In this document: in pieces, positions 1 through 26,102 of the stretch
Layout: the number at the start of each line of letters is the position of its first letter
Position numbering within the stretch: the first letter of the stretch is position 1
Virus record (IMG/VR): IMGVR_UViG_3300037484_000473
Span: 1 to 35,087 of that record
Strand: one strand, 5' to 3'
From: a virus
DNA length: 35,087 nt
Notes under the pieces: generated by a model
What the model saw: only the letters and a program-made list of their open reading frames with translations
Told to the model about the DNA's origin: nothing
Database searches by the model: none
Position numbers and translations under genes: made by a program

Positions 1-127
1 CTATCTCGTCAGCCTTGGCAACGAGCTTCCTGAAGGCTGATCCAGCCGCACTGAAGCCAACGCCCAACCCACCACCGAGAAGGGCACCAAAGCCGATCCC
101 CTGTAGTAGTTGCTCGGCGGTAGCCCC
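1..127. repeat. Terminal direct repeat copy 1 (identical to 34961..35087); assembly overlap or terminal redundancy
   Basis: Base-by-base comparison shows 127/127 identity with the last 127 bases of the window. Confidence 0.95.
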
Positions 128-10946: not shown

Positions 10947-12086
10947 TTACTCAGCGTTAAGCCTCGCTTGTGCAGCCTCACGAGCCCAGATCTTCTTGTA
11001 CTTCGCAAGAAGCTCTTCCTCGCTCAGATCACTAGCTGGCTTTTCGGGAGTTGCAGCCGCCCTCACCGGAGAAACACCCTTTGGTGATCTCGGTTTCTCA
11101 GGCGATTTCCCTGCCCGGTTGGTGATCAGAGGCGATGTCCCTGCCTCGACGGTAGACACGGTAGACACGCTACCGGACGGCCCAAACACCTCGGACCAAG
11201 AGAGATGGGCCTCTCTGATGGTCTGCATGACTCTAGATGCAGCCTCGTCCGGAGAAAGCTCGACTCCCTCCGTCCTATAGGCGTGCATCTGAGCGTTGAA
11301 AACGGTTCGCTTGAAGTCCGGCCTCTTGCTGGCCTTTGCGATGATCCGATCATCGGACTCTTCGAGTGCTGCTTGGAGTGTATCTATGTAGCGTGCCTCT
11401 TGCTGTGCCTGCTCACGTTGGGCGGCTGCCTTCTGAGCGGCCTCTTGTGCCTGCTTCTCGGCCTGCTCCTTGGCTTCGAGCTTGTGCTTGAGCTTGAAAA
11501 GCTCTGGGTCCGAAGCAAGCTTCTGCTTCATGGCTCGATCAGAAATGTTCTCCAGCGACTCACCGAAGGCAGCCTCGATTGCACCGACTACGTCGCCGTC
11601 ATCCCAGGCTCTCTTGGCCTTGGAGAGGCCGTCGTAATCCTTGAGGACGGCTTGGATCTTCTGCTGGACGGCAGATTCTCTGGCCGTGACTTGCTTGTCT
11701 CTAGCTTCGAGCTTGTCCTTCTCGGCCTTCTGCATTCGCCTGAACTTGGCAAACCTATCGCTCGGCACCTTCGTACCATCGACTTCGATCCCTAAGGCTT
11801 CGAGAACTTCCTTGTATTGACCGTTCTTGGCTAGTTTCTGGAGATTCCTAACGTCGGGTAAAGGTGCCTCTTCCTTGCTCTTCTTGGCTTCTACGTGCTC
11901 TTCGTCGGTAGACTTTTCGGAATTCTCGGAGGCAGTTTCGACCGTGTCATCATCGTCAACCGTGGCACCCATACGTTGTAGGAATGACGCAACCGAGTTC
12001 TCCGGAGGGGAGAACCCGGGAGTCTCGGCTAGGCCCTTGAAGGGGGCTTCTACCGCTGGGGCTGGGGAGGCTACGACGTCGGGCAT
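10947..12086 (-). CDS. Scaffolding protein candidate
   Basis: 379 aa, highly charged K/E/A/Q coiled-coil composition. It lies between portal and coat and has a TAATG overlap with the portal stop. Confidence 0.6.
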   Translation of the reverse strand: MPDVVASPAPAVEAPFKGLAETPGFSPPENSVASFLQRMGATVDDDDTVETASENSEKSTDEEHVEAKKSKEEAPLPDVRNLQKLAKNGQYKEVLEALGIEVDGTKVPSDRFAKFRRMQKAEKDKLEARDKQVTARESAVQQKIQAVLKDYDGLSKAKRAWDDGDVVGAIEAAFGESLENISDRAMKQKLASDPELFKLKHKLEAKEQAEKQAQEAAQKAAAQREQAQQEARYIDTLQAALEESDDRIIAKASKRPDFKRTVFNAQMHAYRTEGVELSPDEAASRVMQTIREAHLSWSEVFGPSGSVSTVSTVEAGTSPLITNRAGKSPEKPRSPKGVSPVRAAATPEKPASDLSEEELLAKYKKIWAREAAQARLNAE

Positions 12087-13993
12087 TAAGCTGCTACTCC
12101 TGGGGGTGCCATTGAAGGGGCTCCCATTGGGGCTGGAGGTGCCTGGGGAGGTGCTTGGAGCTGGGCTAGCCGCGCTTGCTTCTTTTGGATCTCAGAGTCG
12201 GCAAGCTCGATCCACCTCAAAAACAAGTCCTTGATCTCATCTGGGGCCGAGTCCAACTCTGCCTGCAAGTAGGCGTCAGCAACTTGGGTCAAGGCATCTT
12301 CAAGCTTCATCCACCTGATAGGTGCCTTGAACAAGTCCTGACCGTCTTGGGTCTTACCCGTGGCTAGTTCGTCTGGTGAGGCATCGAGCCATTGCTCGAT
12401 GTAGCTCTCGATGACGTTCCGTTGCCGGCTAACTCGGTCCAACTCACCAGGTAGATCGTAGTAAGTTTGAATTGCAATGAGGGCGTCTTGGCTTAGCTGA
12501 CCCGCTCCGAACATCTCAGTGGCTGTCTGCAACCTGTCGGCTGGTGTTCCTTTGATTGACGGGGCACTGGCGATCTGGATGACGAACATGTCGTCAGCCA
12601 AGTCAACGTTGGCCCACTTTATCGACTTGAGGAACCCACTTCCGGGCCATTTCACCGCGAAATCAGGGTCATCCTCGGCTAGCTCACGGACACTGGCGAT
12701 GTCATGCCGGGCAATCTCAACGTAGAGGCTTTGGTAGGCTTTCCAGGCTACTGAGAACCGCTCGCTTTGGAGGTCGGCTAGAGTCCTGATGGCACTGTTG
12801 GCGGTCACTCCTGGTTGTTTGACCGCCGTGGCACTCATCTGGTTGATGCCGCTCAGCTCGTACTCGGCCCCCTTGAGCAAGTTAAGGTAAGCTATGTGCT
12901 CGGAGCCGAAGGGAGCAGGCGAAGAGTAGTTGGGGGGTGAGTTGCCGCTGTACTTGATGACACTGGCGTCTTCATTGGTGATCAAGTCACCTGAGACTTC
13001 ACAGGAGTCATTGACGTAACAAATCCCCATCGAGGTGAGCCGAACCGTGCGGCTTATCCTCCCGAGAACATCGTTCATTTCATCGTCAATAGTGGCGATT
13101 TCCTCAATCAACGACGTGCCGTGCCAACCCTGGAACTCCCGATCCCAACGTATGATAGCGAAGGGGAAAGTGTCCCTCTCCCAGGTGTCCTCGATCAATA
13201 TCCCGCCGTCGAACGCAAGCACGTGCTTCCCTGGGCTGTCTGGCCCTAGAGGGAGGCTCCACCACTCATAGACTCGAATCGTATCTACTACTCGTTGGCT
13301 GCCGACGTAGCTCGATATTGTTGAGCCGTAGAGCGTGTCGTCATCACTGTCACCAGTAGGGGCGACATCCAGATCACCTGCTGACTCAGGGAAGATAGCC
13401 TTGAGAGTGTTACGTGGGACGCTGTAGACGTGCCACAGGTTCGTGGGTGCCCCGTACTTGGCGTCTTGGGCATCCACGAGCAGTTCCCACGGGAAAACAC
13501 GCTCATGTATGACACGACCAGCGTCGGTGTCCGACCAGATTTTCACAGCACCCAAGCCACAGACAGCAGCGTCCCTGAAGGCGAAGCATCCTAGTTCCCA
13601 AATGTCCGCGTAGGGTTCTTGTCTGGTTGACCAGAGCCCCGTAACGAAGGCATCGAGCTTGGGTCCCTTCCTTCGGGTGGACCAGTCTGCATTGCTGGCC
13701 ACGAAGGAAACCTTGGGCTGTTGGGCTCCAGCTATCTTGGCTGTTGCAGTGCTGACGAGAGAGCGTGCGAGGTTCCAACGGACTTGGATCTCATCGTCCG
13801 TAGTGAGTCCACCACTGTTCCTATACGCTTCGGGTGACAGTGAGCTGAGCCGCTTGCCTTCGTATCGACTGATGCACGACAGCATCCGGGTTCGGCGGGT
13901 GCTGTCGTCCTTCCAGAGGCCCCGACCAATGGACACAACACTGCTCGCCAGCTCGGCGCCAGTTTGGGTTGTCCAATCGACCACGTTAGGCAC
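12086..13993 (-). CDS. Portal protein candidate
   Basis: A 635-aa ORF immediately downstream of TerL and upstream of scaffold; size and position are typical of a portal. It has a GTG start. Confidence 0.7.
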   Translation of the reverse strand: MPNVVDWTTQTGAELASSVVSIGRGLWKDDSTRRTRMLSCISRYEGKRLSSLSPEAYRNSGGLTTDDEIQVRWNLARSLVSTATAKIAGAQQPKVSFVASNADWSTRRKGPKLDAFVTGLWSTRQEPYADIWELGCFAFRDAAVCGLGAVKIWSDTDAGRVIHERVFPWELLVDAQDAKYGAPTNLWHVYSVPRNTLKAIFPESAGDLDVAPTGDSDDDTLYGSTISSYVGSQRVVDTIRVYEWWSLPLGPDSPGKHVLAFDGGILIEDTWERDTFPFAIIRWDREFQGWHGTSLIEEIATIDDEMNDVLGRISRTVRLTSMGICYVNDSCEVSGDLITNEDASVIKYSGNSPPNYSSPAPFGSEHIAYLNLLKGAEYELSGINQMSATAVKQPGVTANSAIRTLADLQSERFSVAWKAYQSLYVEIARHDIASVRELAEDDPDFAVKWPGSGFLKSIKWANVDLADDMFVIQIASAPSIKGTPADRLQTATEMFGAGQLSQDALIAIQTYYDLPGELDRVSRQRNVIESYIEQWLDASPDELATGKTQDGQDLFKAPIRWMKLEDALTQVADAYLQAELDSAPDEIKDLFLRWIELADSEIQKKQARLAQLQAPPQAPPAPMGAPSMAPPGVAA

Positions 13994-14052: not shown

Positions 14053-15486
14053 CTAGGCGACACGAGGCAACTTACGGGACTTGCTTAATTTTCTAGCTCT
14101 GGCGAATGCTTCGGCCTTGAGGCGGGTTGCCTCTTGGTTTTGCCATTCGGGGGAGCCTACAGCTGGGAGCTCGTGCTCGGCCTTGTAGTTCGGTCGCATG
14201 GCCAAGATGCAATATCGGGCTGCATCGGCCTCGTGGTCGGGGTATCCCGTCTGGTGGTGAGTGCGATCATCATCCCAGGGGAGCTGCGACCATTCATACG
14301 TGAGGCTTCGGCAAGCAGGCTGATGAACCTTGATAGATCCGCTCCGTAACAACCCGTTGAAGAACGCCACCTGCCCCTGCACACTCAATTGTGGGCCAGT
14401 CTTGGCCGATTCAACATAAAGGTTGAATCTATCGGCCCATTCCTTTGTGAAGGCTCGGCCTTGCCCACCCGTATCAGCGACAACACGACAACCGGGATAG
14501 CGGTGCCTCCACTCCATCAGCCTTCCGTAGGAGCTGGAAGGGCCTAGGTCGGTCCAGGATTGGCTCTCTACGATGTGAAGGTCGGGATGACCCAAGAGGT
14601 ACGCCCCTACTACGAACGCCGTGGCATCATCAACACCTAGGTCGATGCCAATGATGTAACGCCACTCCCCGAGAGTGAGGTCAATCTCGCCATTGACCTG
14701 GTTTATTGTCGGATCGTAGGCGTAGACAAGTGCATCCGTGTCCTTGACCCATTGCCCCAAGTACTCCCGGAGGTATCTCGGGGAGGTGTCGTTCATCCCA
14801 AGCTCGACTTGGCGCCGTCGGAGCCATGCCGCTGCATTCGGCAAGAACGGATTATCTAGGCACGTCCAGTGGTAGGTGACCCACTTTTGAAGTTCATTGC
14901 TGCCGGTGGTTACATCATGGAAGTAGCCCGCAGGCGTGGCTCCTGGTGTGCCCGTAAGGGCCAACCAGCCGTCGAGGTCCATCAATGCTGGCTCTAGGAC
15001 GTCCTCGCAGAGGTATTGTAGGTGGGACCGCATGCTGTCGGCCTCATCGACAGCGGCGCCGCAGTACCTGAATCCCCTGAACTTCTCGGCCTCGCTCTTA
15101 TTCTTACAACCGGCTACCCAAAGCCTGTGGCCATTTGGGAACTCCCAATAGATTTGACCATTGCGCGAGGTTTGCCGAGGCTGCCACCCTATTGCCCTTC
15201 CAAGGACTCTGAAGGCTTGCCCGATGATCTCGTTGGCTGTGGCCGCAGAGATAGCAATGAAGACGCTTGTCTCCCCGGGATTTCTGATCGCAGTGATCAG
15301 GAACCTACCTGCTATCCCGTGAGACTTGCCACTGCGACGGCCGCAATGGGCTGCGATCCTACGGGCTAAATCATAGGCAAAAGCTCGTTGCTTCGGGTGA
15401 AGGGCAGCCAGCACCCGCTTCACAGCCTTGTCGCGAGTCAGTAGCTCTACGAGGATGGCTCGTTCGTGAGCCGTGAGGGGGTTCAC
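14053..15486 (-). CDS. terL: Terminase large subunit
   Basis: Motifs seen are Walker A CGRRSGKS, Walker B AAVDEAD, coupling motif LTGTPG, and nuclease acidic motifs IGIDLGVDDA and VADTGGQG. Confidence 0.9.
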   Translation of the reverse strand: MNPLTAHERAILVELLTRDKAVKRVLAALHPKQRAFAYDLARRIAAHCGRRSGKSHGIAGRFLITAIRNPGETSVFIAISAATANEIIGQAFRVLGRAIGWQPRQTSRNGQIYWEFPNGHRLWVAGCKNKSEAEKFRGFRYCGAAVDEADSMRSHLQYLCEDVLEPALMDLDGWLALTGTPGATPAGYFHDVTTGSNELQKWVTYHWTCLDNPFLPNAAAWLRRRQVELGMNDTSPRYLREYLGQWVKDTDALVYAYDPTINQVNGEIDLTLGEWRYIIGIDLGVDDATAFVVGAYLLGHPDLHIVESQSWTDLGPSSSYGRLMEWRHRYPGCRVVADTGGQGRAFTKEWADRFNLYVESAKTGPQLSVQGQVAFFNGLLRSGSIKVHQPACRSLTYEWSQLPWDDDRTHHQTGYPDHEADAARYCILAMRPNYKAEHELPAVGSPEWQNQEATRLKAEAFARARKLSKSRKLPRVA

Positions 15487-15727: not shown

Positions 15728-16342
15728 CTAGTTGGGCTCTCCTGGTGGAGGTGTTGAGGGACTTGCGCCTAGCCCTCTAGTGGCCTCACGGAGCTCGGTG
15801 TCACTGAGGTTGGAGACGGTGATGTCTGTAGCTCTGGGAGGAGCCTTGGCGTTGGACTCGGAGAGCTGGATCTCTAGGCGTCTCCACGTCGAGGCAACGG
15901 TCGAGAGTGTTTCAACGATCGACTGTGAAACGAACCTTGCGTCAGCTAGCTTCTCGGGCCGCAGGCTCTTGATTGAGCGACGAAGGAACGCAACGCCCTC
16001 GGCAATAGCCGGTTCGCATTGCTCGATCCAATTCAGAACCTGGTGATCCGCCTGTTGTTGGATCTCTTCGGTCAGGAGCTCTTTCCGAGAAGGCGGTGGT
16101 GAGGGCTCCGGTGGTGAGGGCAGCTCCGGTGGTGATTCCTCGAGATTCCTCGTGCGAATTCGATAGGCGGTGCGAAAGGAGATCCCATGCTTTTTCGCTA
16201 CCGCTCGGACCGACACACCTGGCACAGCCAAATCCGTAAGGATTGCGAGATCATCTCGAGGATCACACTTCAGCTTACGCTTCCGCTTTGGCACTCTTTG
16301 GCACAGTGTGGCACAGGCTGTGCCGCCATGCAATCCAAACAC
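15728..16342 (-). CDS. HTH DNA-binding protein; small terminase candidate
   Basis: It has an N-proximal HTH (VSVRAVAKKHGISFRTAYRIR) followed by a helical region, and lies just upstream of terL. The start is uncertain (GTG 16342 or an internal GTG). The 5' end is built from TTGGCAC repeats. Confidence 0.45.
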   Translation of the reverse strand: MFGLHGGTACATLCQRVPKRKRKLKCDPRDDLAILTDLAVPGVSVRAVAKKHGISFRTAYRIRTRNLEESPPELPSPPEPSPPPSRKELLTEEIQQQADHQVLNWIEQCEPAIAEGVAFLRRSIKSLRPEKLADARFVSQSIVETLSTVASTWRRLEIQLSESNAKAPPRATDITVSNLSDTELREATRGLGASPSTPPPGEPN

Positions 16343-16361
16343 TTGGCACAGTTTGGCACAC
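16287..16361. promoter_or_regulatory. Five copies of (T)TTGGCAC(A) (minus strand TGTGCCAA) plus a GGCACAG-g-CTGTGCC dyad
   Basis: Copies are at 16287, 16297, 16307, 16342 and 16352; the dyad is at 16311..16325. The cluster overlaps the 5' end and leader of the terS-like gene. Confidence 0.6.
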
Positions 16362-16365
16362 TGGA

Positions 16366-16394
16366 ATTATCAAAAACCCGGCTCGAATAACCAA
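16366..16394 (-). promoter_or_regulatory. Possible sigma70-type promoter (TTGGTT-17 nt-GATAAT on the minus strand)
   Basis: The plus strand reads attatc at 16366..16371 and aaccaa at 16389..16394 with a 17-nt spacer. The match to the -35 consensus is weak. Confidence 0.25.
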
Positions 16395-16443
16395 CCTTGA
16401 CCCACTATAACCAAGCTTGACCAAGCATAAGGCAGGATAAGCC

Positions 16444-16956: not shown

Positions 16957-17044
16957 AAATCACCTAGAAGTAAGCAACGCCCCCACCCCATGGCGTCGAA
17001 GAGATGGATATTCCCGGCGCGGAAGGGTGAGAGCGTTGGGAGGG

Positions 17045-17230
17045 TTAGTCTTTGGCAGCTGGCTCGGGAACTCGAAAGACAATGAGCCAAGGGCAGAGCT
17101 GTGCGATTGTAGCCTTGACATTTTCTATGAGAGTCGGCGTACAGCCCATCTCACTATCAGGCTGCTTCGCCAGGCTCTCAAAGAGATCACGTAGATCGAT
17201 CAGTTCTTTTCGGGTTCGGGAGTAGGTCAC
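17045..17230 (-). CDS. 61-aa hypothetical protein
   Basis: GTGA overlap with the upstream ORF (translational coupling). Confidence 0.5.
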   Translation of the reverse strand: MTYSRTRKELIDLRDLFESLAKQPDSEMGCTPTLIENVKATIAQLCPWLIVFRVPEPAAKD

Positions 17231-17439
17231 GTTGTCTCCTTTGCAGGCTGGATCGCCTGCAGTGCTGCTGAGATGCTGATGTTGCCTTCGATGGCATCGG
17301 CGACGAGGGTGGCCTCGTATTGCCCTGTGAGGTGCCTGTATCGGTGGGCGGCCCTCTCGGTGGCTTCAAGCTCTCGGTCGCTCTGAGATGGCGATTTGGG
17401 GCCGGAAAGGGTGGTTATAAGCCGTGCGATGATGCTCAT
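17227..17439 (-). CDS. 70-aa hypothetical protein
   Basis: ATGA overlap with the upstream ORF. Confidence 0.5.
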   Translation of the reverse strand: MSIIARLITTLSGPKSPSQSDRELEATERAAHRYRHLTGQYEATLVADAIEGNISISAALQAIQPAKETT

Positions 17440-17690
17440 GCTGTGATCCTCTGGGCTTCGAGCTTGCGTATCGACACATATCTCTGGGCCTCGACCCTAT
17501 ACATGATCAGACGATCTATCATGCGACCGAGGATTATTACCTCAGGCTCCGTTGGATATTTTTTCTCTAGGAGGGCGGCAAATTCCACAATTTCTCTGAT
17601 ATCCTTGCGAAAGAGGAGACTTTTGTCGCCGTAGATCTGATCGAGCTCCGCTCGAATACCCGGCACAAATGCCATGAGGTCATCACACAT
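17436..17690 (-). CDS. 84-aa hypothetical protein, first ORF of the leftward late unit
   Basis: This is the first ORF after the 765-bp gene-free hub and is coupled to the downstream ORFs. Confidence 0.55.
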   Translation of the reverse strand: MCDDLMAFVPGIRAELDQIYGDKSLLFRKDIREIVEFAALLEKKYPTEPEVIILGRMIDRLIMYRVEAQRYVSIRKLEAQRITA

Positions 17691-17744
17691 GGGGGTCCAT
17701 CTCCATCCGCACCGTAGTTCTCCAACTCGAAGTCTTAGCGAACG

Positions 17745-17772
17745 CCCTGGTGGGAGTGTCAGCCCACCAGGG
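17745..17772. other. Perfect hairpin CCCTGGTGGG-8 nt-CCCACCAGGG
   Basis: 10-bp arms at 17745..17754 and 17763..17772. Confidence 0.85.
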
Positions 17773-17877
17773 CACTCAGCCAGTCAGATACCCAAGACAG
17801 GAGAACACACAATGCGAGTACTAGTGTCCTCTACGCCCTCGAACCGGTCAACAACTTCTTGGTGTTAGTTGAGCTGT

Positions 17878-17897
17878 GGGATTTTCTCAAAAATCCC
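17878..17897. other. Perfect hairpin GGGATTTT-ctca-AAAATCCC
   Basis: 8-bp arms at 17878..17885 and 17890..17897. Confidence 0.8.
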
Positions 17898-17910
17898 GGC
17901 GAGGTAAGCG

Positions 17911-17970
17911 GGGATGAACAACAATGAGGTGGGATGAGTGACAATGAGACGGGATGAGCGGGTTAGAGCC
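17911..17970. repeat. About 2.5 tandem copies of a 20-bp unit GGGATGAnnnACAATGAGnn
   Basis: The units are gggatgaacaacaatgaggt, gggatgagtgacaatgagac and gggatgagcg(ggttagagcc). Confidence 0.8.
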
Positions 17971-17995
17971 AGTTGCGAAGGAAAGCTTCGCAACT
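17971..17995. other. Perfect hairpin AGTTGCGAAG-gaaag-CTTCGCAACT
   Basis: 10-bp arms at 17971..17980 and 17986..17995. Confidence 0.85.
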
Positions 17996-18003
17996 CCCTG
18001 AGG

Positions 18004-18148
18004 TACTTGGGGATGTTTAGGGATACTTGGGTGTACTTGGGGATGAATGGGGATACTCAGGGATAGATAGGTACCTTTGGGGATGTTTGGGTGTACTTGG
18101 GGATGTTTGGGGATAGATAGGTATACTTGGGGATGATTGGGTGTAGAC
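18004..18148 (+). repeat. Array of 14 G-tract units phased at about 10 bp (TTGGGGATG / TTGGGTGTAC / AGGGATA variants)
   Basis: G-runs start at 18009, 18020, 18029, 18039, 18049, 18060, 18070, 18079, 18089, 18099, 18109, 18120, 18129 and 18139. Confidence 0.85.
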
Positions 18149-18149
18149 C

Positions 18150-18205
18150 AACCTGTGCATTTGGCTCACAGGTTGAACCTGTCGGAGTTTCCGACAGGTT
18201 CAACC
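18150..18205. promoter_or_regulatory. Two adjacent dyads built from four AACCTGT half-sites (8-bp and 16-bp arms), overlapping by 4 nt
   Basis: Dyad 1 is AACCTGTG (18150..18157) with CACAGGTT (18167..18174). Dyad 2 is GGTTGAACCTGTCGGA (18171..18186) with TCCGACAGGTTCAACC (18190..18205). Confidence 0.8.
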
Positions 18206-18213
18206 ATTTCCTT

Positions 18214-18234
18214 CACGGCGGAACTACCGCCGTG
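18214..18234. other. Perfect hairpin CACGGCGG-aacta-CCGCCGTG
   Basis: 8-bp arms read directly from the sequence. Confidence 0.8.
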
Positions 18235-18243
18235 TATATACAC
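18232..18243. promoter_or_regulatory. 12-bp perfect palindrome GTGTATATACAC (copy 1 of 2)
   Basis: The identical 12-mer recurs at 22849..22860; both copies are intergenic. Confidence 0.7.
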
Positions 18244-18270
18244 AAATCCCCCACTTCCCTCGATGAAACC

Positions 18271-18287
18271 AATAGCCACGGTGGCTA
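18271..18287. other. Palindrome ATAGCCAC-g-GTGGCTAT
   Basis: 8-bp arms around a single central base. Confidence 0.75.
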
Positions 18288-18554
18288 TCACGGGAACGCT
18301 CGGGGATTTGGGTTTCCCACCACCCTGGAGGGGGCAGAAAGCCCAGAGAATCACGAAATCCCCACCGTGGGATCAGGGGGATCCCACCCATCTCCACGGC
18401 ACATCTTCCGCAACTAGGGTGCCAGGCATATCGGACGGGAATTGTCAAATCGGGCTTGAGTTGCGAGCTTGGGCAGGGCGGTGGAATACCTAGCAGGTCC
18501 AATGGCCGCCTACATGTTGGCACTATGCCACCGGTATGGGCCGGTGGTGATCAA

Positions 18555-18770
18555 ATGACCTGGAACAACCTCCCCCAAATCCTCACGGCTATCGGAACCG
18601 TTCTGGGCGCGATCTTCCTGCTCATTAGGTGGCTTCTCAAGTGGAGGAGTGACTACGACCGAGACGTTTGGAAAAGGTCGCAGGACCTTTGTCAGATCCA
18701 ATCGGCCGAACTAGAGAGGCTGCGGCAGGTTTCCGGGTTGCCCAAGGTGCCACTGGATCCCCCGGCATAG
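18555..18770 (+). CDS. 71-aa single-pass membrane protein (MTWNNLPQILTAIGTVLGAIFLLIRWLLKW...)
   Basis: An internal ATG of ORF 18456..18770 gives an N-terminal TM helix. A 7-bp-stem hairpin CCACCGG/CCGGTGG lies just upstream. The start is uncertain (18456, 18525 or 18555). Confidence 0.5.
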   Translation: MTWNNLPQILTAIGTVLGAIFLLIRWLLKWRSDYDRDVWKRSQDLCQIQSAELERLRQVSGLPKVPLDPPA

Positions 18771-18812
18771 GCGTCTATTGACGCCCATGAGCCGGAGTGA
18801 TGGGCTGGGAGG

Positions 18813-19040
18813 ATGCCTACAAACTCAGGACCCGTAGTCAATTGGCTGAGAGAGCACAACCTAGCGATGTGCCGTTGCGGTAGCGACAAGTACAATATTG
18901 GACAATTGGCGGCCCTAGTCGCCCTGAAGGGAGCTCGACCAGACATTGACGGGCCTATTACTAGGGTAGTCCCGATTGTCTGCGAAGCCTGTGGCGAGAT
19001 ACGGCTGTACTCCACTGAGGTGCTGAAGCTCTACACCTAG
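18813..19040 (+). CDS. 75-aa zinc-ribbon-like protein (CRC ... CEAC)
   Basis: The ORF carries paired cysteine motifs and converges on the DUF4145-like gene. Confidence 0.5.
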   Translation: MPTNSGPVVNWLREHNLAMCRCGSDKYNIGQLAALVALKGARPDIDGPITRVVPIVCEACGEIRLYSTEVLKLYT

Positions 19041-19047
19041 GAGGAGC

Positions 19048-19063
19048 GTGTCGTTGTCGACAC
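19048..19063. terminator. Short hairpin GTGTCG-ttgt-CGACAC between convergent genes
   Basis: A 6-bp stem lies between the 19040 (+) and 19063 (-) gene ends. There is no clear U-tract. Confidence 0.3.
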
Positions 19064-19665
19064 TATCCATTGGGGCGTGATGGTCTTTCCTTAACTGCCT
19101 TTGCAAGACCCTCTATGACAGCAACCGTAAGCTTCACAGCAGCGTCAATTTCGTCGTCCGCAACCTCATCCAGAAAATCATCTTTTGGATGGGCACCATA
19201 GACGTTTGCGAAAACTCGAATGTTGTGGGCTTGGCCCGCCTGTATGGCGGTCATAATCCCCCGTTCTTTAAGCACCCCTATCTTTTTGGCCAGCGTGTCG
19301 GAAGGGCCTCCCACCTCGTTGGTTGCTCGCTCTAGGGCGCGACGGAGCATAACCGTAGCCGCACGGGAACACCCAGCATTTGCCGCACGAATACCTTCCT
19401 TGAGATCCTTACCTATTTCGGGAGATACGGATCGGAGAGCACTAACGGGCACAACAAACCTGTCGACGGGGTCAACCGTCTTCAATCCTCCCATCATATC
19501 GAATGTAATACTATGTGTGAATTTGCAGGCCGGGCATCTCCAAAGATGAGGCCCATCTATCCACCATTTGGGGGCCTCATGAAAACCGTAGCATCCGTGG
19601 CACTGGATATCTGTCATCTCTAACCAATCCTTCGCTACTGCTTCCCGCAACCATGTTTGGATCAT
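19063..19665 (-). CDS. 200-aa protein with an N-terminal zinc ribbon (CHGC...CPAC) and a C-terminal DUF4145-like domain
   Basis: The C-terminal pattern is A..C.RAATVMLRRALE......G....LAKKI..L...G.......H.IR..AN.YGAHP, followed by DEIDAAVKL. This matches my memory of the DUF4145 pattern. Confidence 0.6.
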   Translation of the reverse strand: MIQTWLREAVAKDWLEMTDIQCHGCYGFHEAPKWWIDGPHLWRCPACKFTHSITFDMMGGLKTVDPVDRFVVPVSALRSVSPEIGKDLKEGIRAANAGCSRAATVMLRRALERATNEVGGPSDTLAKKIGVLKERGIMTAIQAGQAHNIRVFANVYGAHPKDDFLDEVADDEIDAAVKLTVAVIEGLAKAVKERPSRPNG

Positions 19666-20064: not shown

Positions 20065-20175
20065 TGTGAGAAACCCCGGCTCTCTCTCTCTTCTCTTTAA
20101 CCGTTTTTTCACGACTCTGAGTCCGTGAGAAAGACAGATGTAGTTAAGAGAGTAAGAGATCCGGGGTTTCTCACA
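20065..20175. other. 111-nt extended imperfect hairpin (15-bp perfect outer stem, CT-tract/AG-tract middle, apical stem-loop)
   Basis: TGTGAGAAACCCCGG (20065..20079) pairs with CCGGGGTTTCTCACA (20161..20175). Inside, ctctctctctcttctcttt opposes aagagagtaagagat. The apex is cacgac-tctga-gtccgtg. Confidence 0.75.
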
Positions 20176-20179
20176 GCTC

Positions 20180-21661
20180 TCACACTCCATCGAGGAGTGT
20201 TCTGAACTCCTCTTCGGATGGATTGGTCATACCATCCTCGTGGCCAGTGTAAGAGATCTTACGGCTTGGGAAGGTCACGCTGGCCTCAAAGTCGGAGAAT
20301 GGACCTCCCTCTCTGTTCTTCAGGCAAGTGATCCGGGTTCGGTTTCGGGCCCGCAGATCATCATCGATCCAAGACGTGGTCACGTAGTCGGAGCTACGCT
20401 CGGCCTCATTGGCATTTGACAAATGAGCCAAGGTCAACCGTCCACCCTCTTTGCTGGCCGTCCGTGACCCTTCTCGATTGATTTGGTGCAAGATGAGCAC
20501 TGGAACACCTGCCCCTCCTGCGAAGCCTAGGGCGGCCTGTTTTGCGTCCACAAAGACCGAGTTGGCCGAAGCCAGAGGGTCGTTCCGGAACTGCGTCGCA
20601 GGCTTCACTAGGCCGGAATGATCGATAACAACCAACCCAAGCGGGTCTCTGCGGTTGATCGCCTCTGCTTGCACCATGATCTCCGCTATTCCTACCTTCT
20701 TGGGCGGGGACCAAACCGTCAGGGTCCCCTTTGCACTGGCCTCAGCGTCTCGCGCAACCTCGGCCAGGTAAGCCTCGTCTTGGGGGTTGAGCTTGCCCTC
20801 CCGGACCTGCCCGTAGTTCAAACCAGGTCGGCCCCATTTTTCAAAATTGGAAGCTGAGTGAATAACGTAGAGACTTCTGCGAATTTGCTCGATGGTCATC
20901 TCGAGAGAGACATAGAGAACGCCACGGCCATCGATCATGGTCGTGTAGTACGCGACGTTGGCCGCTAACGTGCTTTTTAGATGACCAGTGAAGGCGGCAT
21001 GGGTCCACATCTCTCCGGGCCTCACACCTGAGAAGCAGTCATCGATAGGGCCTAGCCCACAACGAAGCCCCAAAGGGCGAGCCTTGGCTTCGTTGTAGTC
21101 GTTGATGACCGCGGCCGAATCATTCCAGATTTTCGAGCGTGCTTTTGAATCATCCTGAAGTAGGTCGGAGAAGCCTTGAGTAACATACTTTAAGGCATCT
21201 TCAGGGCCTTTGAAGTTGATCGTCCTATTTCCAAGCTTCTTGGTGATCCCAGATTCGACGATTTTCTTGCCTGCCTCCATGAGGCTGATGGCCGTCACCT
21301 TGCGTTGGCTTTCGATCTCCGCGGTTAGGTAGTGCTTGAAGGGATTCACAGCATGGAAGTGGCACGAGGAAATATCCCCGAGCTTGTCCACTGTTGTCAT
21401 ACCGTCCACACCTACCCGCTCGAAGTAGTTTCGGATTATGTCCGCAGTGGGTGGCTCATCAGTCTCATCGACGTACTCGCGTACGAACCCGGCTATTTTG
21501 CTGCAATCAGGATTGAGGAAGACATACTTACCGCTTCTAACGGCCTCAACAAGCCGAAGGGTATTAGCTAGTAAGTCCTGCTTGGGCTCATCCCCATGGC
21601 GAATTACGCTACGTAGCAGCGTGTTAGGGTTCGATCCATCCGTGGCCCAGGTGGCTGCCAT
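20180..21661 (-). CDS. dnaB: DnaB-family replicative helicase
   Basis: Motifs seen are YVSLEM (H1a), VVIDHSGL (Walker B) and LHQINREG with LSNANEAERSSDYV (DnaB C-terminal motifs). The P-loop position reads AAFTGHLKST. Confidence 0.85.
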   Translation of the reverse strand: MAATWATDGSNPNTLLRSVIRHGDEPKQDLLANTLRLVEAVRSGKYVFLNPDCSKIAGFVREYVDETDEPPTADIIRNYFERVGVDGMTTVDKLGDISSCHFHAVNPFKHYLTAEIESQRKVTAISLMEAGKKIVESGITKKLGNRTINFKGPEDALKYVTQGFSDLLQDDSKARSKIWNDSAAVINDYNEAKARPLGLRCGLGPIDDCFSGVRPGEMWTHAAFTGHLKSTLAANVAYYTTMIDGRGVLYVSLEMTIEQIRRSLYVIHSASNFEKWGRPGLNYGQVREGKLNPQDEAYLAEVARDAEASAKGTLTVWSPPKKVGIAEIMVQAEAINRRDPLGLVVIDHSGLVKPATQFRNDPLASANSVFVDAKQAALGFAGGAGVPVLILHQINREGSRTASKEGGRLTLAHLSNANEAERSSDYVTTSWIDDDLRARNRTRITCLKNREGGPFSDFEASVTFPSRKISYTGHEDGMTNPSEEEFRTLLDGV

Positions 21662-22329
21662 TAGGCACCCGCCTTTCCTGCCGCGGCTAGGTCAACAAAC
21701 CTAGGATCGTCTTCCGCGGGAACGAGATTGATCCGTGGCCAGTCCTTGATTCTCTCGGCAGTATCCGCTGACCAAGAGGCATGCCCACCTTTGAACGGTT
21801 TGCTGGGGGTCTCTACGAGCCAAGTAGGAATCGAGGCGTCATCGGCCATCGACATGACCTCGTAGAGAGCGGGGGCATTCGTGCCATGAGGGCTGGCCTG
21901 ACCAAGCCTAATGACTACCAGCGCCTGGTCCTGGACTAGATCGGTATGCCTCATGGCCTTGCCATCGGCGAAGTACATCGATCGGATCGCCAAGTCATTG
22001 GTCGCCAGAAGTGGCCACTCGTTCGAAAAAACCGTTCTATCCCTCAACGACTCTACAACCACGCAGCAAGCCAAATGGTGCATGAGTTGGGGCCACTCGG
22101 CACGGATGACCATGTTCTCTGCCTTCGCTCGGCCCTCAGATACTAGAGGGCTAGCCTTGGCTGCTACGTACTTGGGGATCTCTACCCGCTCGAACAGCTT
22201 TCCATATTTCGCAAAGCTTTGCTGTACTCGGATGCGAAGCTCTTGGATTTGAACGCAAGGGCAAGTTCGACCCCCATTTACGAAGCCAGATCCGAAGCAC
22301 TTCGGGCAATCAATCTCTGGGGAGATCAT
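21661..22329 (-). CDS. 222-aa zinc-ribbon protein (CPKCFGSG...CPC); helicase-loader role possible from position only
   Basis: The ATG at 22329 makes an ATGA overlap with the upstream stop, and there is a TAATG overlap with the helicase start. No Walker motifs were seen. Confidence 0.45.
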   Translation of the reverse strand: MISPEIDCPKCFGSGFVNGGRTCPCVQIQELRIRVQQSFAKYGKLFERVEIPKYVAAKASPLVSEGRAKAENMVIRAEWPQLMHHLACCVVVESLRDRTVFSNEWPLLATNDLAIRSMYFADGKAMRHTDLVQDQALVVIRLGQASPHGTNAPALYEVMSMADDASIPTWLVETPSKPFKGGHASWSADTAERIKDWPRINLVPAEDDPRFVDLAAAGKAGA

Positions 22330-22769
22330 AGCGCCACCACCTTCCGGGCTTCGCGCCAAGCTTGCATGTATTTCCGATGCTCTTCCTTGTGCGAGGCCCG
22401 ATATTCCGCTTGATATTTCTCCTGGTAGGCTTTGACTTTTGCTCGTTGGAACGGATTTTGAAGTCGTTGGCTCTGGTGCCGCCTATCCCTTTCACGTCCC
22501 ATCAAGTAGACATAGTGATAGAGGTCCGTTGCTTCGGTCTTGGCTTCACGTGCAAGCCTCCAGATCTCCTTGATCTGGTCCGATGTGAACCGCTCCTTGA
22601 TCTTCGCGAAGGCTGCCTGAGCCTTAGAATAATGGCTATCGTCCTTGATTCCACTGAGGACGGCCATTCGGATTTGTTCGAGGCACAGCGTGAGAAACGA
22701 CGTCAAGTCGAGGCCACGGTCGTCAACGTTGCGCTCAGCTGCAGCAACAGCTATACTCTCTGTTAACAT
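22326..22769 (-). CDS. 147-aa hypothetical protein with a basic C-terminal half
   Basis: The ORF has GGAG 5 nt upstream of its ATG. Confidence 0.6.
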   Translation of the reverse strand: MLTESIAVAAAERNVDDRGLDLTSFLTLCLEQIRMAVLSGIKDDSHYSKAQAAFAKIKERFTSDQIKEIWRLAREAKTEATDLYHYVYLMGRERDRRHQSQRLQNPFQRAKVKAYQEKYQAEYRASHKEEHRKYMQAWREARKVVAL

Positions 22770-23918: not shown

Positions 23919-24341
23919 TTACGCGATAATCCCTGCTTTTTGAGCTTCTTCGGTGGTAAAACACTCGCCGCTGATCAACTGGTCCAACGACAAACCCTCG
24001 CTTTCCTCGGGGATTTCCTCGGCTTTTGCCGTCGGCTCGTCGAGGTCATCGGGCAAGTCAGCCAGAAACCTTGCGAATTGATCCTCGTTGGGGGGTTCTG
24101 GTGTGGGTGCCGGTACTGTTGGTGGGGCTGGGGGAGCGGCACGGCTAGCCTCAGCCAGCTCCAGCAGCCACACCTCGAGCCTAGGCAGGCTCCAGCGTAG
24201 CCTACCGCCCTTTCCCGCGGGTCTGCCGACCCTATAACATGGACATCCAGGCTCTCTAGCTAGACGCTGTAGATAGTCCTCGCTGATTCCCAGCGTCTTG
24301 GACACCGTGACTGTGTTTACACATTTCTCCACACCTGACAT
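23919..24341 (-). CDS. 140-aa excisionase/MerR-family HTH DNA-binding protein with an acidic, proline-rich tail; first gene of the early leftward unit (Cro-like position)
   Basis: The HTH segment is VTVSKTLGISEDYLQRLAREPGCPCYRVGRP...LRWSLPRLEVWL. AAAGGAA lies upstream of the ATG. The gene is divergent from the int unit. Confidence 0.65.
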   Translation of the reverse strand: MSGVEKCVNTVTVSKTLGISEDYLQRLAREPGCPCYRVGRPAGKGGRLRWSLPRLEVWLLELAEASRAAPPAPPTVPAPTPEPPNEDQFARFLADLPDDLDEPTAKAEEIPEESEGLSLDQLISGECFTTEEAQKAGIIA

Positions 24342-24738: not shown

Positions 24739-25227
24739 GTGGTTGGCGCCGGTTCGGTGGATCCCCCGGCGAAATGGAGCAACGTCGATAGCGTGGCAGA
24801 CGACCTTCCGAGATGGATTCGGATTCAGCAGCTTAAGGATCGTGCTCTTGCAGATCATTTGGAGCGTCAATACGCCGCTCCAAAAGAGGTCGACTCGACT
24901 TCGTTGACCAAGGCGCAACTTGCCAAGGCACTCGGGGTGTCGTCGTCGACGGTTTCAACGTGGCTGCGTGAGGGGATCCCCTGCCTTCGGCGGGGCAATG
25001 TTGTTCGATTTGATCTGGAGCAAGTTAAGCAATGGGCAGGCACGCAAGCGGGTGGAAACTCCGTCTCAGCACCGGCAGCAAAACCTACTCGGTTAGGTTC
25101 TGGTCGGCGAAGGAACAACGCCAAGTCGAGCTCAGCACAGGCGAGCAAGACCCTGATCGAGCTGCGGAGAGAGCTGCGGTCCTCTACTCGGACCACGTCC
25201 AAGGGCGCCTTAAAGACCGGCAAATAA
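24739..25227 (+). CDS. Excisionase-family HTH protein (Xis or regulator candidate); 3' end overlaps int by 196 nt
   Basis: The HTH segment is LTKAQLAKALGVSSSTVSTWLREGIPCLRRGNVVRFDLEQVKQW. There is no in-frame ATG; candidate starts are TTG 24739 or GTG 24793. Confidence 0.55.
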   Translation: MVGAGSVDPPAKWSNVDSVADDLPRWIRIQQLKDRALADHLERQYAAPKEVDSTSLTKAQLAKALGVSSSTVSTWLREGIPCLRRGNVVRFDLEQVKQWAGTQAGGNSVSAPAAKPTRLGSGRRRNNAKSSSAQASKTLIELRRELRSSTRTTSKGALKTGK

Positions 25228-26102
25228 AGCAAGCTGGAACACCAGCGGCCATGGAAGATGCCGCGGTGAAGTGGATCGAAGCTTCAAGGGGGTTGATCGC
25301 AGACAACACGCTAACCACCTATGCCCAGTACTTCTCTAGCCACCTGGTGGACGCCTTCCCTTCCCTGCTTGATGTCACTCCTTCATCGGTCAAGGAATAC
25401 ATCACCAAGAGGTTGGCAGTCGTTCGAGCCCAAAGCGTCCGGAAGGAGTTGTCGGCACTCCGTGGGGTGACGGCTTGGGCTGCTGAGACCGGCTTGATTG
25501 CAGAGCAGCCTTTGATCCCAGGGATCGCCAAGAAGGTTCAGGGGACAGCCTGGTCGAAGAAACGACGTTCGAAGGCTGGACGACTTGAGGTTGAAGAAAT
25601 CGAAGCCTTCTTGGCGGCGCTACCTGTCACGGTAGCCAAGATTGGGTTCGTCCAAGCGAGGTTCGTACTTCAATACGAGATGGCATTGAGGCCCTCGCTC
25701 GTAGACCGCTTATCTGCCCCTGAGCATTGGTACCCCGGGAGCAAATACCTAACCCTCGATGCCAGTTCAATGAAGGCCAGAACCGAGTCCGAGAAGCTAC
25801 TCACCCATCGAGCCAAGCAAGCTCTAGAGGATTCATACCGCGGCCCAGGGCTGATCTACGGGTGCCATGACTACCGCTTGGTAGTTGCCGAGGCGGCCCT
25901 GGTCCTCCCTCCGGAGAAGGCTGCCACCTTCACAACCGCTCACTTGCGGTCAGCCGGACTGACTCACCTGGTTGACCAAGGGGCCAGTTTGGCCGAGGTG
26001 CAGGCCCATGCTGACCACAAATTGGCCAGTACGACTGACCGTTATTTGAGGTCCTCAAAGAAGTCCCTGGAAGCGTTTCTCGTCCGTCGTGGACGGGCAT
26101 AA
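25032..26102 (+). CDS. int: Tyrosine recombinase (phage integrase)
   Basis: The N-terminus reads GRHASGWKLRL..SKTYSVRF. The catalytic region contains ALRPS, HDYR, TAHLRSAGLTHL and HADHKLASTTDRYL (R...H-x-x-R...H...Y). Confidence 0.85.
   Translation: MGRHASGWKLRLSTGSKTYSVRFWSAKEQRQVELSTGEQDPDRAAERAAVLYSDHVQGRLKDRQIKQAGTPAAMEDAAVKWIEASRGLIADNTLTTYAQYFSSHLVDAFPSLLDVTPSSVKEYITKRLAVVRAQSVRKELSALRGVTAWAAETGLIAEQPLIPGIAKKVQGTAWSKKRRSKAGRLEVEEIEAFLAALPVTVAKIGFVQARFVLQYEMALRPSLVDRLSAPEHWYPGSKYLTLDASSMKARTESEKLLTHRAKQALEDSYRGPGLIYGCHDYRLVVAEAALVLPPEKAATFTTAHLRSAGLTHLVDQGASLAEVQAHADHKLASTTDRYLRSSKKSLEAFLVRRGRA

Follow-up and report, generated by a model that had tools for sequence, protein, structure and literature searches.

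In the plasmid partition centromeres and omega-type operator arrays bound by ribbon-helix-helix proteins (ParR-parC of R1/pSK41, ParG-parH and the omega heptads), contiguous direct repeats of 7-11 bp in helical register nucleate a superhelical complex of protein and DNA. BldC/Xis-type proteins, MerR-like winged-helix (HTH_17) proteins that include Gp36 of mycobacteriophage D29, occupy short direct repeats of one orientation and variable number, with one protomer on each, and assemble on them cooperatively in head-to-tail fashion to affect transcription (PMC5859096, PMC12266134). For BldC, one protomer occupies each 9-bp direct repeat, and filaments assemble head to tail over differing repeat numbers (PMC5859096); D29 Gp36 binds direct repeats and represses transcription (PMC12266134). 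Known sites of this type hold 2-4 repeats, rarely more, and are AT-rich or of a GCGGC type. The late activators Ltr and RinA require 2-4 direct repeats, and in the Ltr/RinA/ArpU superfamily and TP901-1 Alt the direct repeats stand upstream of the promoter for terS and the morphogenesis genes (PMC3753634), directly between the activator gene and terS. Plasmid and phage iterons (lambda ori, P1, P4 type I) are tandem or clustered non-coding repeats, usually with a unit of about 17-22 bp and spaced in whole helical turns, that lie near replication genes and are accompanied by neighbouring inverted repeats. At the RNA level, RhoTermPredict searches for rut sites as a C-rich, G-poor stretch of at least 78 nt with a pause hairpin within 150 nt (PMC6407284); each Rho subunit contacts 5 nt, with 4-5-nt linkers between contacts, and prefers A and C (reviewed in PMC12360218), which gives a pitch of 9-10 nt.

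The window analysed here is the whole 35,087-nucleotide stretch of IMG/VR record IMGVR_UViG_3300037484_000473, and comprises the complete, circular genome of a temperate phage (~34,960 bp, assembled with a 127-bp overlap) that encodes an integrase and has an attP-like region. A phased array of G-rich repeats lies within the longest non-coding stretch of this genome. The first-pass annotation had recognized the stretch as the largest free of genes and had placed it at 17691-18455; its right end is more likely 18554 (864 bp in total) because a conserved downstream gene starts at ATG 18555. ORFs crossing the stretch gave zero PHROG matches. A proline-rich peptide from the minus-strand ORFs 18017-18169 and 18057-18203 was considered and rejected, the primary period of the repeats being 10, which is not a multiple of 3, and no family match being obtained. 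This control region is flanked on one side by the early/replication and accessory genes and on the other by the leftward late operon, in which the genes for proteins of 84, 70 and 170 aa are followed by terS and terL, with portal in the same operon. The nearest genes to the right of the array (18555-18770 and 18813-19040) are directed away from it. No tRNA genes or Rfam families were found. The features of the region and the genes referred to below are as follows.

15728-16342: TerS, an HTH_23 protein
17744-17773, minus strand: leader hairpin (11-bp stem), downstream of the promoter and ahead of the start codon at 17690
17823-17851, minus strand: predicted promoter of the leftward operon, TTGACC-N17-GACACT (TTGACC-N17-GACAAT in the relative L321)
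17878-17897: palindrome GGGATTTT-CTCA-AAAATCCC, centred ~71 bp upstream of the predicted leftward-promoter start
17911-17957, plus strand: three further GGGATGA copies (17911, 17931, 17951) at an exact 20-bp spacing, in a register one base off that of the main array
17971-17995: perfect hairpin with a 10-bp stem and a 5-nt loop (AGTTGCGAAG / CTTCGCAACT), separating the 20-bp-spaced copies from the main array
18004-18143, plus strand: main array of 14 contiguous 10-bp direct repeats, consensus TACTTGGGGA, core TTGGGKAT, zero indels
18149-18205: four alternating AACCTGT/ACAGGTT copies forming nested palindromes
18240-18313: GGGGATTT sites in opposite orientations, an inverted pair whose arms ACACAAATCCCC / GGGGATTTGGGT are separated by 50 nt
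18358-18392: GAAATCCCCACC ... GGGATCAGGGGGATCCCACC, further GGGAT/ATCCC copies in both orientations
20180-21661: DnaB-like helicase
21661-22359: putative zinc-finger loader
23919-24341: 140-aa protein with a weak HTH_17 match (E = 0.06)

The motif core of the 10-base head-to-tail copies is TTGGGGAT. With position 18004 as the start of a 10-bp register, the 14 units carry 31 mismatches to the consensus in 140 positions and no indels, a substitution level of ~22 % that is distributed as 0 to 8 changes at each of the ten positions. Runs of three or more Gs start at 18009, 18020, 18029, 18039, 18049, 18060, 18079, 18089, 18099, 18109, 18129 and 18139 (n = 12), and the two remaining units, with G-runs beginning at 18070 and 18120, contain GG only. 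All of the G-run starts given in the first-pass annotation were reproduced, as was their confinement to the plus strand, 12 of the runs having at least three Gs; no C3+ runs occur within 17999-18247. The higher-order repeats that it had quoted were likewise recovered (GGGTGTACTTGGGGATG at 18029 and 18089, GGATAGATAGGTA at 18061 and 18111), and 50- and 60-bp higher-order duplications are present inside the array, which was called by TRF at periods of 10, 20, 30 and 50. A consistent 20-bp alternation of odd and even units was not found.

The phasing of G3+ runs on the plus strand is far beyond chance: the longest phased chain contains 12 runs in the real sequence, compared with a maximum of 6 in shuffled sequence (200 dinucleotide shuffles of the whole window and 2000 of the array itself). 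Fourier power of G is 7.0 at a period of 10.0 and 1.0 at 10.5, with a genome 99th percentile of 1.07. The sites had been described as lying on one face of the duplex, which does not hold for B-DNA of 10.5 bp per turn, where a spacing of 10.0 bp drifts by ~17 degrees per unit and ~240 degrees over the array. Conservation extends beyond the G runs. Positions G7 and G8 are retained in 14/14 units, T1 and T5 in 13/14, and T4 and A10 in 11/14, so that T1, T4, T5 and A10 are conserved to the same degree as the G runs, and positions 2 and 3 are nearly free (0.74 and 0.16 bits of information).

Related motifs are enriched in the flanks outside the array, where GGGAT was found 11 times against 1.74 expected (P = 2e-6), GGGGAT 5 times against 0.59 expected, and GGGATTT 5 times against 0.11 expected (P = 1e-7). 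These flank copies are found in either orientation and include a palindrome and inverted pairs. The flank sites are of the GGGGATTT type and the array units of the GGGGATG/A type. To the right of the array, the AACCTGT/ACAGGTT palindromes include a perfect 16-bp stem (18171-18205) with a terminator-like score on the plus strand. A sponge RNA of the CsrB/Rsm type was considered on account of this hairpin and 12 GGAU motifs, but it was rejected, with no rightward promoter found and no Rfam match at E values of up to 10.

The closest relative, and the only close syntenic one with DNA, is L321, with identities of 81 % for TerL, 61 % for DnaB and 64 % for the putative loader; its TerS is only 40 % identical, making this the most diverged packaging protein, and the 147-aa protein is 45 % identical. 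Conserved between the two phages are the -35 and -10 elements of the leftward promoter, GCATTGTGTGTTC, the leader hairpin, which is retained in L321 via compensatory changes, and the ribosome-binding region. The promoter spacer sequence differs, and conservation stops exactly upstream of the -35 element. The palindrome half AGAAAATCCCAC is also found in L321 (7935-7954). The array is located 150-330 bp upstream of the conserved promoter. Conservation in related phages had been proposed as a check by the first-pass annotation, and its outcome is negative: in L321, the best syntenic relative, neither the array nor a GGGAT cluster is present, and the entire early region is free of other iterated stretches. 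The array is accessory and not a core part of the switch, because it is absent from this sole close syntenic relative.

More distant phages related through TerL have short motifs of their own in the non-coding DNA that precedes the late operon. These are GTCCCAC and GGTTGTGCA in L002 and L004/L006, present as tandem copies 9-12 bp apart together with inverted copies, and the same-position arrays of L002 and L004 are not G-rich; two other TerL relatives (P0006 and P0008) have too little upstream sequence for comparison. Zero matches were obtained in a blastn search of positions 17000-19500 against 50,697 phage records and in a comparison of the array region with plasmids. Nothing was found in IMG/VR with TerL peptide patterns or with the conserved leader pattern GAACACACAATGC...TGTCCTC, the homologue search with the 70-aa neighbour protein returned a self-match only, and exact look-up of the 84-aa protein and TerL gave no record. 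An unrelated gut-phage family has a phased G-run array of the same polarity 0.5-1.5 kb downstream of dnaB, adjoining an iteron-rich, AT-rich region, with linkers that are invariant between subclades whose flanks are unalignable. In a Verrucomicrobia genome, a phased G-run array of the same polarity lies downstream of a tRNA-Phe gene.

We give close to an even chance, and tentative preference, to the reading that the array is a phased set of sites for one sequence-specific DNA-binding protein that polymerizes head to tail into a regulatory or insulating complex. The ~14 adjacent sites would form a platform at the DNA level, with the protein reading the 7-8-bp core TTGGGKAT and adding a protomer every 10 bp as it polymerizes head to tail, in a manner similar to BldC/Xis-type winged-helix and ParR/omega-type ribbon-helix-helix proteins on direct repeats of their own. 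The array and the dyad-type GGGAT(TT) sites that flank it may organize a large nucleoprotein complex within the 864-bp control region, and the most likely job of this complex would be to control or insulate the conserved promoter at 17823-17851 and a divergent promoter of the small rightward genes. We infer protein binding, filament formation and transcriptional output alike. The reading is favoured by the exact period of 10.0 over 140 bp with 31 substitutions and zero indels, by a conservation pattern that resembles a recognition core plus spacer and not G runs alone, by the flank enrichment of GGGAT-type motifs and the palindrome near -71 of the promoter, and by the position of the conserved promoter and leader ~150 bp from the array end. 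The tandem and inverted motifs that L002 and L004/L006 carry ahead of the late operon, the precedents of BldC, D29 Gp36 and the Ltr/RinA activators, and the lack of coding evidence from the crossing ORFs point the same way. A nucleoprotein switch was among the proposals of the first-pass annotation and is the best supported of them, given the conserved non-G positions, the flank motifs and the promoter palindrome, although the binding protein was not found. Fourteen sites are unusually many, and at 190-330 bp upstream of a promoter lie unusually far away, for a promoter regulator; the array is not conserved in L321; that one protein reads both the flank and the array types of site is an assumption; and recent duplication of 50 and 60 bp, instead of selection, could partly mimic position-specific conservation.

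The search for a binding protein (Pfam, PHROGs and PADLOC, ~45 ORFs) returned almost nothing, nearly all of the phage proteins being orphans. The sole excisionase/BldC-like hint is the weak HTH_17 match of the 140-aa protein. For the adjacent 84-aa and 75-aa proteins, single-sequence modelling with AlphaFold2 yielded low confidence (pLDDT 64 and 52), and Foldseek with the 84-aa model returned nothing at E values under 2.6. A CxxCxGxG zinc finger characterizes the unannotated family of the 232-aa protein encoded upstream of DnaB, for which neither Pfam nor PDB gave a match. Of the described systems, the BldC/Xis type is matched in the ~9-10-bp direct repeats of one orientation, and cooperative head-to-tail binding with a transcriptional outcome would be putative here; the locus differs in having 14 contiguous G-rich repeats and no confident HTH_17 protein. 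With 14 x 10 bp the array also falls within the 7-11 bp of the contiguous ParR/omega-type repeats. No partition motor (ParM, ParA or TubZ) or ribbon-helix-helix adaptor was detected with Pfam in the scanned ORFs, and a phage with an integrase and an attP-like region, as here, would not be expected to need a centromere. The Ltr arrangement is fitted by a separate repeat cluster at terS, but not by the G-rich array, and no Ltr homologue was detected in the phage. This cluster comprises TTGGCAC x6-7 at 16220-16365 and four 10-bp ACCMA units at 16387-16430, the latter being the repeats that fit, and has a positional counterpart in L321. One protein for both the array and the terS-proximal repeats is not supported, since the array position-weight matrix does not pick out the latter.

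Among the alternatives, a replication origin is unlikely, though no other iterated cluster lies near the replication module and strong hairpins adjoin the array. The repeats would then be iterons, or an accessory element for initiator assembly and loading of the DnaB-like helicase, and unwinding or loading would take place at the neighbouring palindromes and GTGTATATACAC. The repeat-rich non-coding regions that immediately follow the primase/helicase genes in L006 and L002, an additional (TA)15 tract in L004/L006, and the dnaB-linked position and polarity of the gut-phage arrays agree with such a role. It was among the proposals of the first-pass annotation and is weakened by L321, which shares the helicase module yet lacks the array or any iterated early region. 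The 10-bp unit, without a 20-bp alternation, also contrasts with the 17-22 bp usual for iterons, no clear AT-rich unwinding element is present, and still no initiator is recognized, as that annotation had stated. None of the lowest-GC 40-bp windows of the genome overlaps the array, the nearest (17853-17895) lying ~110 bp to its left within the non-coding stretch, and the AT-rich palindrome GTGTATATACAC, at 12 bp, falls short of an unwinding element. A DnaA-box cluster was rejected because the best units (reverse complement CTATCCCCA or GTATCCCCA) match TTATCCACA at 7/9 positions and, in the direct reading, every unit has CCCA for CACA; repeats inside the putative initiator gene (AGATCAAGGAG x2) were also set aside, not being conserved in L321. 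Less probable again is an idealized Rho-loading track written in DNA, in which any leftward transcript arriving from the early or accessory genes would carry 14 UCCCCAA motifs at a 10-nt pitch, matching the 9-10-nt spacing of the six primary RNA-binding sites on the Rho ring, so that Rho loads and terminates before the late-operon promoter and the late genes are insulated; UCCCCAA plus a 3-nt linker fits the pitch given by 5-nt contacts and 4-5-nt linkers. Minus-strand RNA of the array reaches a C/G ratio of 7.4 in 78 nt, the genome maximum on either strand, and the second minus-strand window (C/G 3.6) is the adjacent 17898-17975. The array part of this RNA is predicted to be almost unpaired, with C runs every 9-11 nt, and the perfect 10-bp hairpin at 17971-17995 follows within 150 nt downstream, as in the C-rich, G-poor, unstructured stretch plus pause hairpin of rut sites (PMC6407284, PMC12360218). 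Such a track would account for the strict strand asymmetry with no phage-encoded binding protein needed, and the shared polarity of the gut-phage and Verrucomicrobia arrays, downstream of dnaB and tRNA-Phe, is consistent with it. Against it, the right-side genes are oriented away from the array, and promoter prediction gave no leftward candidate from 18150 to 18555. Leftward read-through from the early operon may enter the array. Natural rut sites are degenerate, exact tandem repeats not being among their known requirements, the GGGAT(TT) flank copies in opposite orientation would be unexplained, the invariant linkers of the gut-phage arrays imply sequence-specific reading and not mere C-richness, and Rho is presupposed in the host.

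We regard a pac or cosB site as improbable. On this view a TerS oligomer, seated on the phased sites, would have the DNA wrapped around it and would direct packaging towards the late operon; the array does head the leftward operon containing terS, terL and portal, its one-directional repeats provide polarity, and the divergence of TerS from L321 (against 81 % for TerL) parallels the absence of the array there. However, 1.66 kb of sequence with three to four genes separates the array from terS, which lies downstream, and a packaging site, as suggested in the first-pass annotation, is made less likely by the different phased repeat cluster, with its L321 counterpart, at terS itself; the circular assembly, with its overlap, carries no information on physical genome ends. 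There is an equally low probability of a selectively neutral minisatellite that slippage or unequal exchange would have generated within a variable, accessory part of the genome. Absence from L321 and the recent expansion seen in the 50- and 60-bp duplications speak for this origin of the repeats, and zero indels despite 22 % substitution, the uneven spread of substitutions over the ten positions and the enrichment of related motifs in unique flanks speak against it. Tandem plus-strand quadruplexes as the functional structure, in DNA or in a rightward RNA, are very improbable; they might block polymerase, stabilize an R-loop or recruit a G4-binding protein. The G3+N1-7 pattern noted previously is present at 18009-18062 and 18079-18112 but is not continuous, because two GG-only units interrupt it, and G4Hunter, which had been suggested as a check, gave a maximum of 1.68 in 25-nt windows, above the usual 1.2-1.5 thresholds, but a mean of 1.12 over the array. 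Just one further canonical motif occurs elsewhere in the genome, and the G runs are strictly strand-asymmetric. The loops, however, are all 6-7 nt long, a length that gives the least stable G4 topologies. With quadruplex energies in ViennaRNA (RNA parameters; a model only), the predicted minimum-energy fold was identical with or without G4 and contained no quadruplex. Two of the units have GG only, conservation is as strong at non-G positions as at the outer Gs, and G-richness is not shared by the positionally equivalent arrays of L002 and L004; on this modelling and comparison a G-quadruplex is a formal possibility that is not favoured. Bent DNA, also proposed earlier, is not supported: there are no A-tracts, and a wedge model gave an end-to-end/contour ratio of 0.960, at the 40th percentile of a genome with a median of 0.966.

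If a protein does coat the array, the locus would be among the longest natural head-to-tail operator arrays in phage (140 bp at an exact 10.0-bp spacing), and a compact model for filament-forming proteins that switch or insulate late genes. The array could also be used as bait to give an orphan protein a function, because this phage lineage has almost no annotated proteins. Should the Rho-loading reading be true, phages would encode repeat-built Rho-loading sites, the long-elusive sequence rules of rut would become directly testable, and the gut-phage dnaB and Verrucomicrobia tRNA arrays would be further examples of the same device. Phased G-run arrays beside helicase genes in unrelated phages suggest a broader, undescribed class of element. 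A scan of genome and viral contigs with the pattern TGGGGATNNNTGGGGAT gave mostly chance single matches, and also surfaced, in three contigs that encode no homologue of any window protein (L182, L209 and L218), unrelated GGGGAT arrays.

The array at 18004-18143 on the plus strand consists of 14 contiguous direct repeat units, each exactly 10 bp long with no insertions or deletions, and the units depart from the consensus TACTTGGGGA at 31 of 140 positions. The coordinates of the G runs listed in the first-pass annotation were all correct when re-read in the sequence. The phased chain comprises 12 runs of three or more G, compared with a maximum of 6 both in 200 dinucleotide shuffles of the genome and in 2000 shuffles of the array itself. 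G periodicity in the array reaches a power of 7.0 at period 10.0 and only 1.0 at period 10.5; the 99th percentile across the genome is 1.07. The proposal that all sites face one side of the duplex is not borne out, as a 10.0-bp spacing on DNA of 10.5 bp per turn drifts by about 17 degrees per unit, so that proteins arrayed on it would trace a superhelix unless the DNA were overwound. Conservation within the unit depends on position, with G7 and G8 invariant, T1 and T5 each kept in 13 of the 14 units, T4 and A10 each kept in 11, and positions 2 and 3 almost free, which defines a core, TTGGGKAT, and a 2-3-bp spacer. This combination has the look of a protein recognition site, unlike a quadruplex, which would place constraint on the G runs alone. 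That the array is a neutral minisatellite is very unlikely.

The termini of the window (1-127 and 34961-35087) are direct repeats of 127 bp, the mark of a circular assembly, and the window, which derives from a JGI metagenome, is consequently a complete genome (about 34,960 bp); the contig ends are uninformative on where the phage DNA physically begins and stops. The phage is tailed and temperate, with the following recognizable genes:

12086-13993, portal
14053-15486, large terminase (TerL)
15728-16342, HTH_23 protein in the small-terminase (TerS) position
minus strand, a long morphogenesis operon
20180-21661, DnaB-like helicase
25032-26102, tyrosine integrase

Nearly all other proteins were orphans in family searches, the best match to TerL in the phage collection is only 24% identical, and no DNA-level likeness to the array region was found among phage records or plasmids. 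The array lies in the largest gene-free stretch of the genome, as previously described, but this more likely extends over 17691-18554 than over 17691-18455; ORFs crossing it had no family match. The gene downstream more likely starts at the ATG at 18555, from which point it shares 82% DNA identity with a gene of L321, the closest syntenic relative with DNA. The array lies in the middle of about 520 bp of structured DNA, with these flanking elements:

17878-17897, left of the array, palindrome GGGATTTT-CTCA-AAAATCCC
17911, 17931 and 17951, left, three GGGATGA copies at exact 20-bp spacing
17971-17995, left, perfect 10-bp hairpin
18149-18205, right of the array, four alternating AACCTGT/ACAGGTT copies in nested form (three overlapping palindromes)
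18171-18205, perfect 16-bp stem within these palindromes
right, 12-bp AT palindrome
up to 18392, right, further GGGGATTT/AAATCCCC copies in both orientations

With the array left out, the flanks contain 11 copies of GGGAT (1.74 expected), 5 of GGGGAT (0.59 expected) and 5 of GGGATTT (0.11 expected, P ~1e-7). The AACCTGT palindromes could be the operator of a second protein, a terminator of rightward transcripts or a cruciform-prone site.

TerL relatives from metagenomes (L001-L007, 50-65% identity) have structural genes in common with the window and carry unrelated genes upstream of the terminase. L321, reached via the helicase, is the sole close syntenic relative with DNA, sharing TerL (81% identity), TerS (40%), DnaB (61%), the 232-aa protein upstream of DnaB (64%) and proteins of 73 aa (73%), 70 aa (77%) and 120 aa (82%). 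Positions 8444-8591 of L321 align with 17688-17831 of the window, and the minus-strand elements in window 17690-17851 (L321 8444-8600) include TTGACC, which is kept, an unconserved 17-bp spacer and GACACT (GACAAT in L321). GCATTGTGTGTTC and GTATCTGAC are conserved 3' of the -10, a leader hairpin at 17744-17773 is maintained by compensatory changes (GCCCTGGTGGG/CCCACCAGGGC versus GGCTGGGAGGGG/CCCCTCCCAGCC), and the ribosome-binding and start region is identical. The aligned segment is read as the putative promoter and 5' leader of the leftward operon (84 aa, 70 aa, 170 aa, terS, terL), common to both genomes although the first downstream gene differs. The centre of the palindrome is about 71 bp upstream of the predicted transcription start. 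Conservation ends exactly upstream of the -35, where L321 has a 133-aa ORF and the window the repeat region, and the palindrome half AGAAAATCCCAC is present in L321 beyond the far side of that ORF; the array is consequently an accessory insertion in a variable slot adjoining a conserved promoter. No array, GGGAT cluster or other iterated stretch was found in L321, i.e. the array is not conserved in the closest relative. Two of the TerL relatives (L004/L006) and a third (L002) have motifs of their own, GGTTGTGCA and GTCCCAC respectively, in the non-coding region between the primase/helicase genes and the late operon, each in 2-3 tandem copies at intervals of 9-12 bp and in inverted copies as well, and L004/L006 additionally carry a (TA)15 tract. 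A lineage-specific short repeated motif in the slot is therefore the recurrent architecture, and G-richness is not.

Phased G arrays also occur elsewhere. A human-gut phage family, with contigs of about 55-59 kb at most loci, keeps a 7-run array, TTAGGGGGATTATAGGGGGTAATAGGGGTTGTAGGGGAAAGAGGGGGA, and a second block, CTTTGGAGATAGAGGGTTGTAGGGGGAAAGAACC (L325 1418-1479, L329 2632-2703, L362 3115-3176, L440 7118-7189 and about 25 more IMG/VR loci). Both blocks are invariant across two subclades in which DnaB is 50% identical and the flanks are unalignable. The array is 0.5-1.5 kb downstream of dnaB with its G strand antisense to that gene, and in L329 it adjoins a non-coding stretch of about 1.1 kb that carries AT-rich tracts and at least 12 copies of ATAGTCG. 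Phased GGGAT-type arrays in DNA unrelated to the window were found at L182 7078-7378 (an AT-rich core flanked by two inverted sets, each of seven TGGGGATTGT units, inside a longer inverted repeat), L209 3231-3485 (six GGGGATGTAT and two copies standing apart, in a Verrucomicrobia genome, downstream of a tRNA-Phe on the minus strand) and L367 9192-9382 (22 GGGATATGA, 9-bp period); none of these three loci encodes homologues of window proteins.

Of the structures suggested in the first-pass annotation, the canonical tandem quadruplex pattern is present in two blocks, but no loop is shorter than 6 or longer than 7 nt, and GG is all that two of the units contain. G4Hunter gave a peak of 1.68 and a mean of 1.12 over the array, no G4 appeared in its best fold (ViennaRNA with quadruplex energies), and it is extremely unlikely that a quadruplex itself is the functional element. 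Bent DNA was not supported, since A-tracts are absent and, in what is only a rough test, a wedge model gave a path whose straightness matches the genome median. A replication origin, also proposed earlier, draws on the adjoining hairpins and on the position beside replication genes, in this lineage and in the gut-phage family; it is weakened by L321, which retains the helicase module without any array, by the 10-bp unit and by the absence of an AT-rich unwinding element. As before, no initiator was recognised, and an origin is considered unlikely.

The array might instead be a repeat-built Rho-loading track read leftward. In that direction no other 78-nt window of the genome is as C-rich and G-poor (C/G 7.4), the RNA of the array is predicted to be largely unpaired and a hairpin comes no more than 150 nt after it, a layout used for predicting Rho-dependent terminators (PMC6407284). 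The 10-nt pitch also fits the 5 bound and 4-5 linker nucleotides per Rho subunit, A and C being preferred (PMC12360218). The genes closest to the array on its upstream side are directed away from it, however, no leftward promoter was predicted there, and flank sites in the opposite orientation are left unexplained, making this track distinctly improbable. The packaging or recognition site proposed earlier has a slim chance, because a different phased cluster lies at terS itself (16220-16430), with a counterpart in L321. It comprises six to seven TTGGCAC copies in the 5' end of terS, spaced partly at 10 bp, and, in the interval separating terS from the 170-aa gene, four 10-bp ACCMA units (2 x 20 bp); a TGGCA palindrome and a CCCA array phased at 10 bp occupy the same position in L321 (9410-9560). 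As a set of Ltr/RinA-type activator repeats or as a pac site, the terS cluster is a better candidate than the G-rich array.

The array is tentatively interpreted as a DNA-level series of sites, about 14 in number, that a single sequence-specific protein would occupy head to tail, forming with the dyad sites near both array ends a regulatory or insulating nucleoprotein complex. Such a complex is favoured by the position of the array between the conserved leftward promoter and small rightward genes, with dyad sites near both ends. Plasmid ParR and omega arrays operate in a similar manner. Documented precedents are BldC, with one protomer per 9-bp direct repeat and filaments on variable repeat numbers (PMC5859096), the phage D29 repressor Gp36, a binder of direct repeats (PMC12266134), and the Ltr/RinA late activators, which require 2-4 direct repeats (PMC3753634). 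Tandem protein-binding repeats are an already known kind of element, and this array is unusual in its length (14 units), exact 10.0-bp register, G-rich core and location in an orphan phage. Candidate binders are the window proteins absent from L321, together with a 140-aa protein:

17436-17690, 84 aa, absent from L321
18813-19040, 75 aa, zinc-finger-like, absent from L321
19662-19865, 67 aa, absent from L321
140-aa protein, weak HTH_17 match

Structure prediction gave no usable models for the 84-aa and 75-aa proteins.

The slot that separates the early from the late operon resembles an accessory (moron) region. A DUF4145 protein (19063-19665) has an N-terminal zinc-ribbon-like motif of CxxC pairs and a weak match (E = 4.6e-4) to the single-gene anti-phage system PD-T7-4. 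Just 3' of the integrase gene, five copies of (C)AGGGAGGGT at 26095-26310 resemble integrase arm-type sites of an attP region, and the sole other canonical quadruplex motif of the genome (26095-26119) is in this stretch. A 27-nt inverted repeat (20065-20175; 89% complementary, arms 57 nt apart) with a CT-rich tract lies in the 314 bp of non-coding DNA that immediately follow the DnaB-like gene. The 232-aa protein (21661-22359), which overlaps the start of the DnaB-like gene and matched nothing in Pfam or the PDB, is probably a helicase loader; its unannotated family has 94 representatives at E <= 0.001, with a conserved C-terminal domain and, at the N terminus, a common CxxCxGxG...CxC zinc finger.
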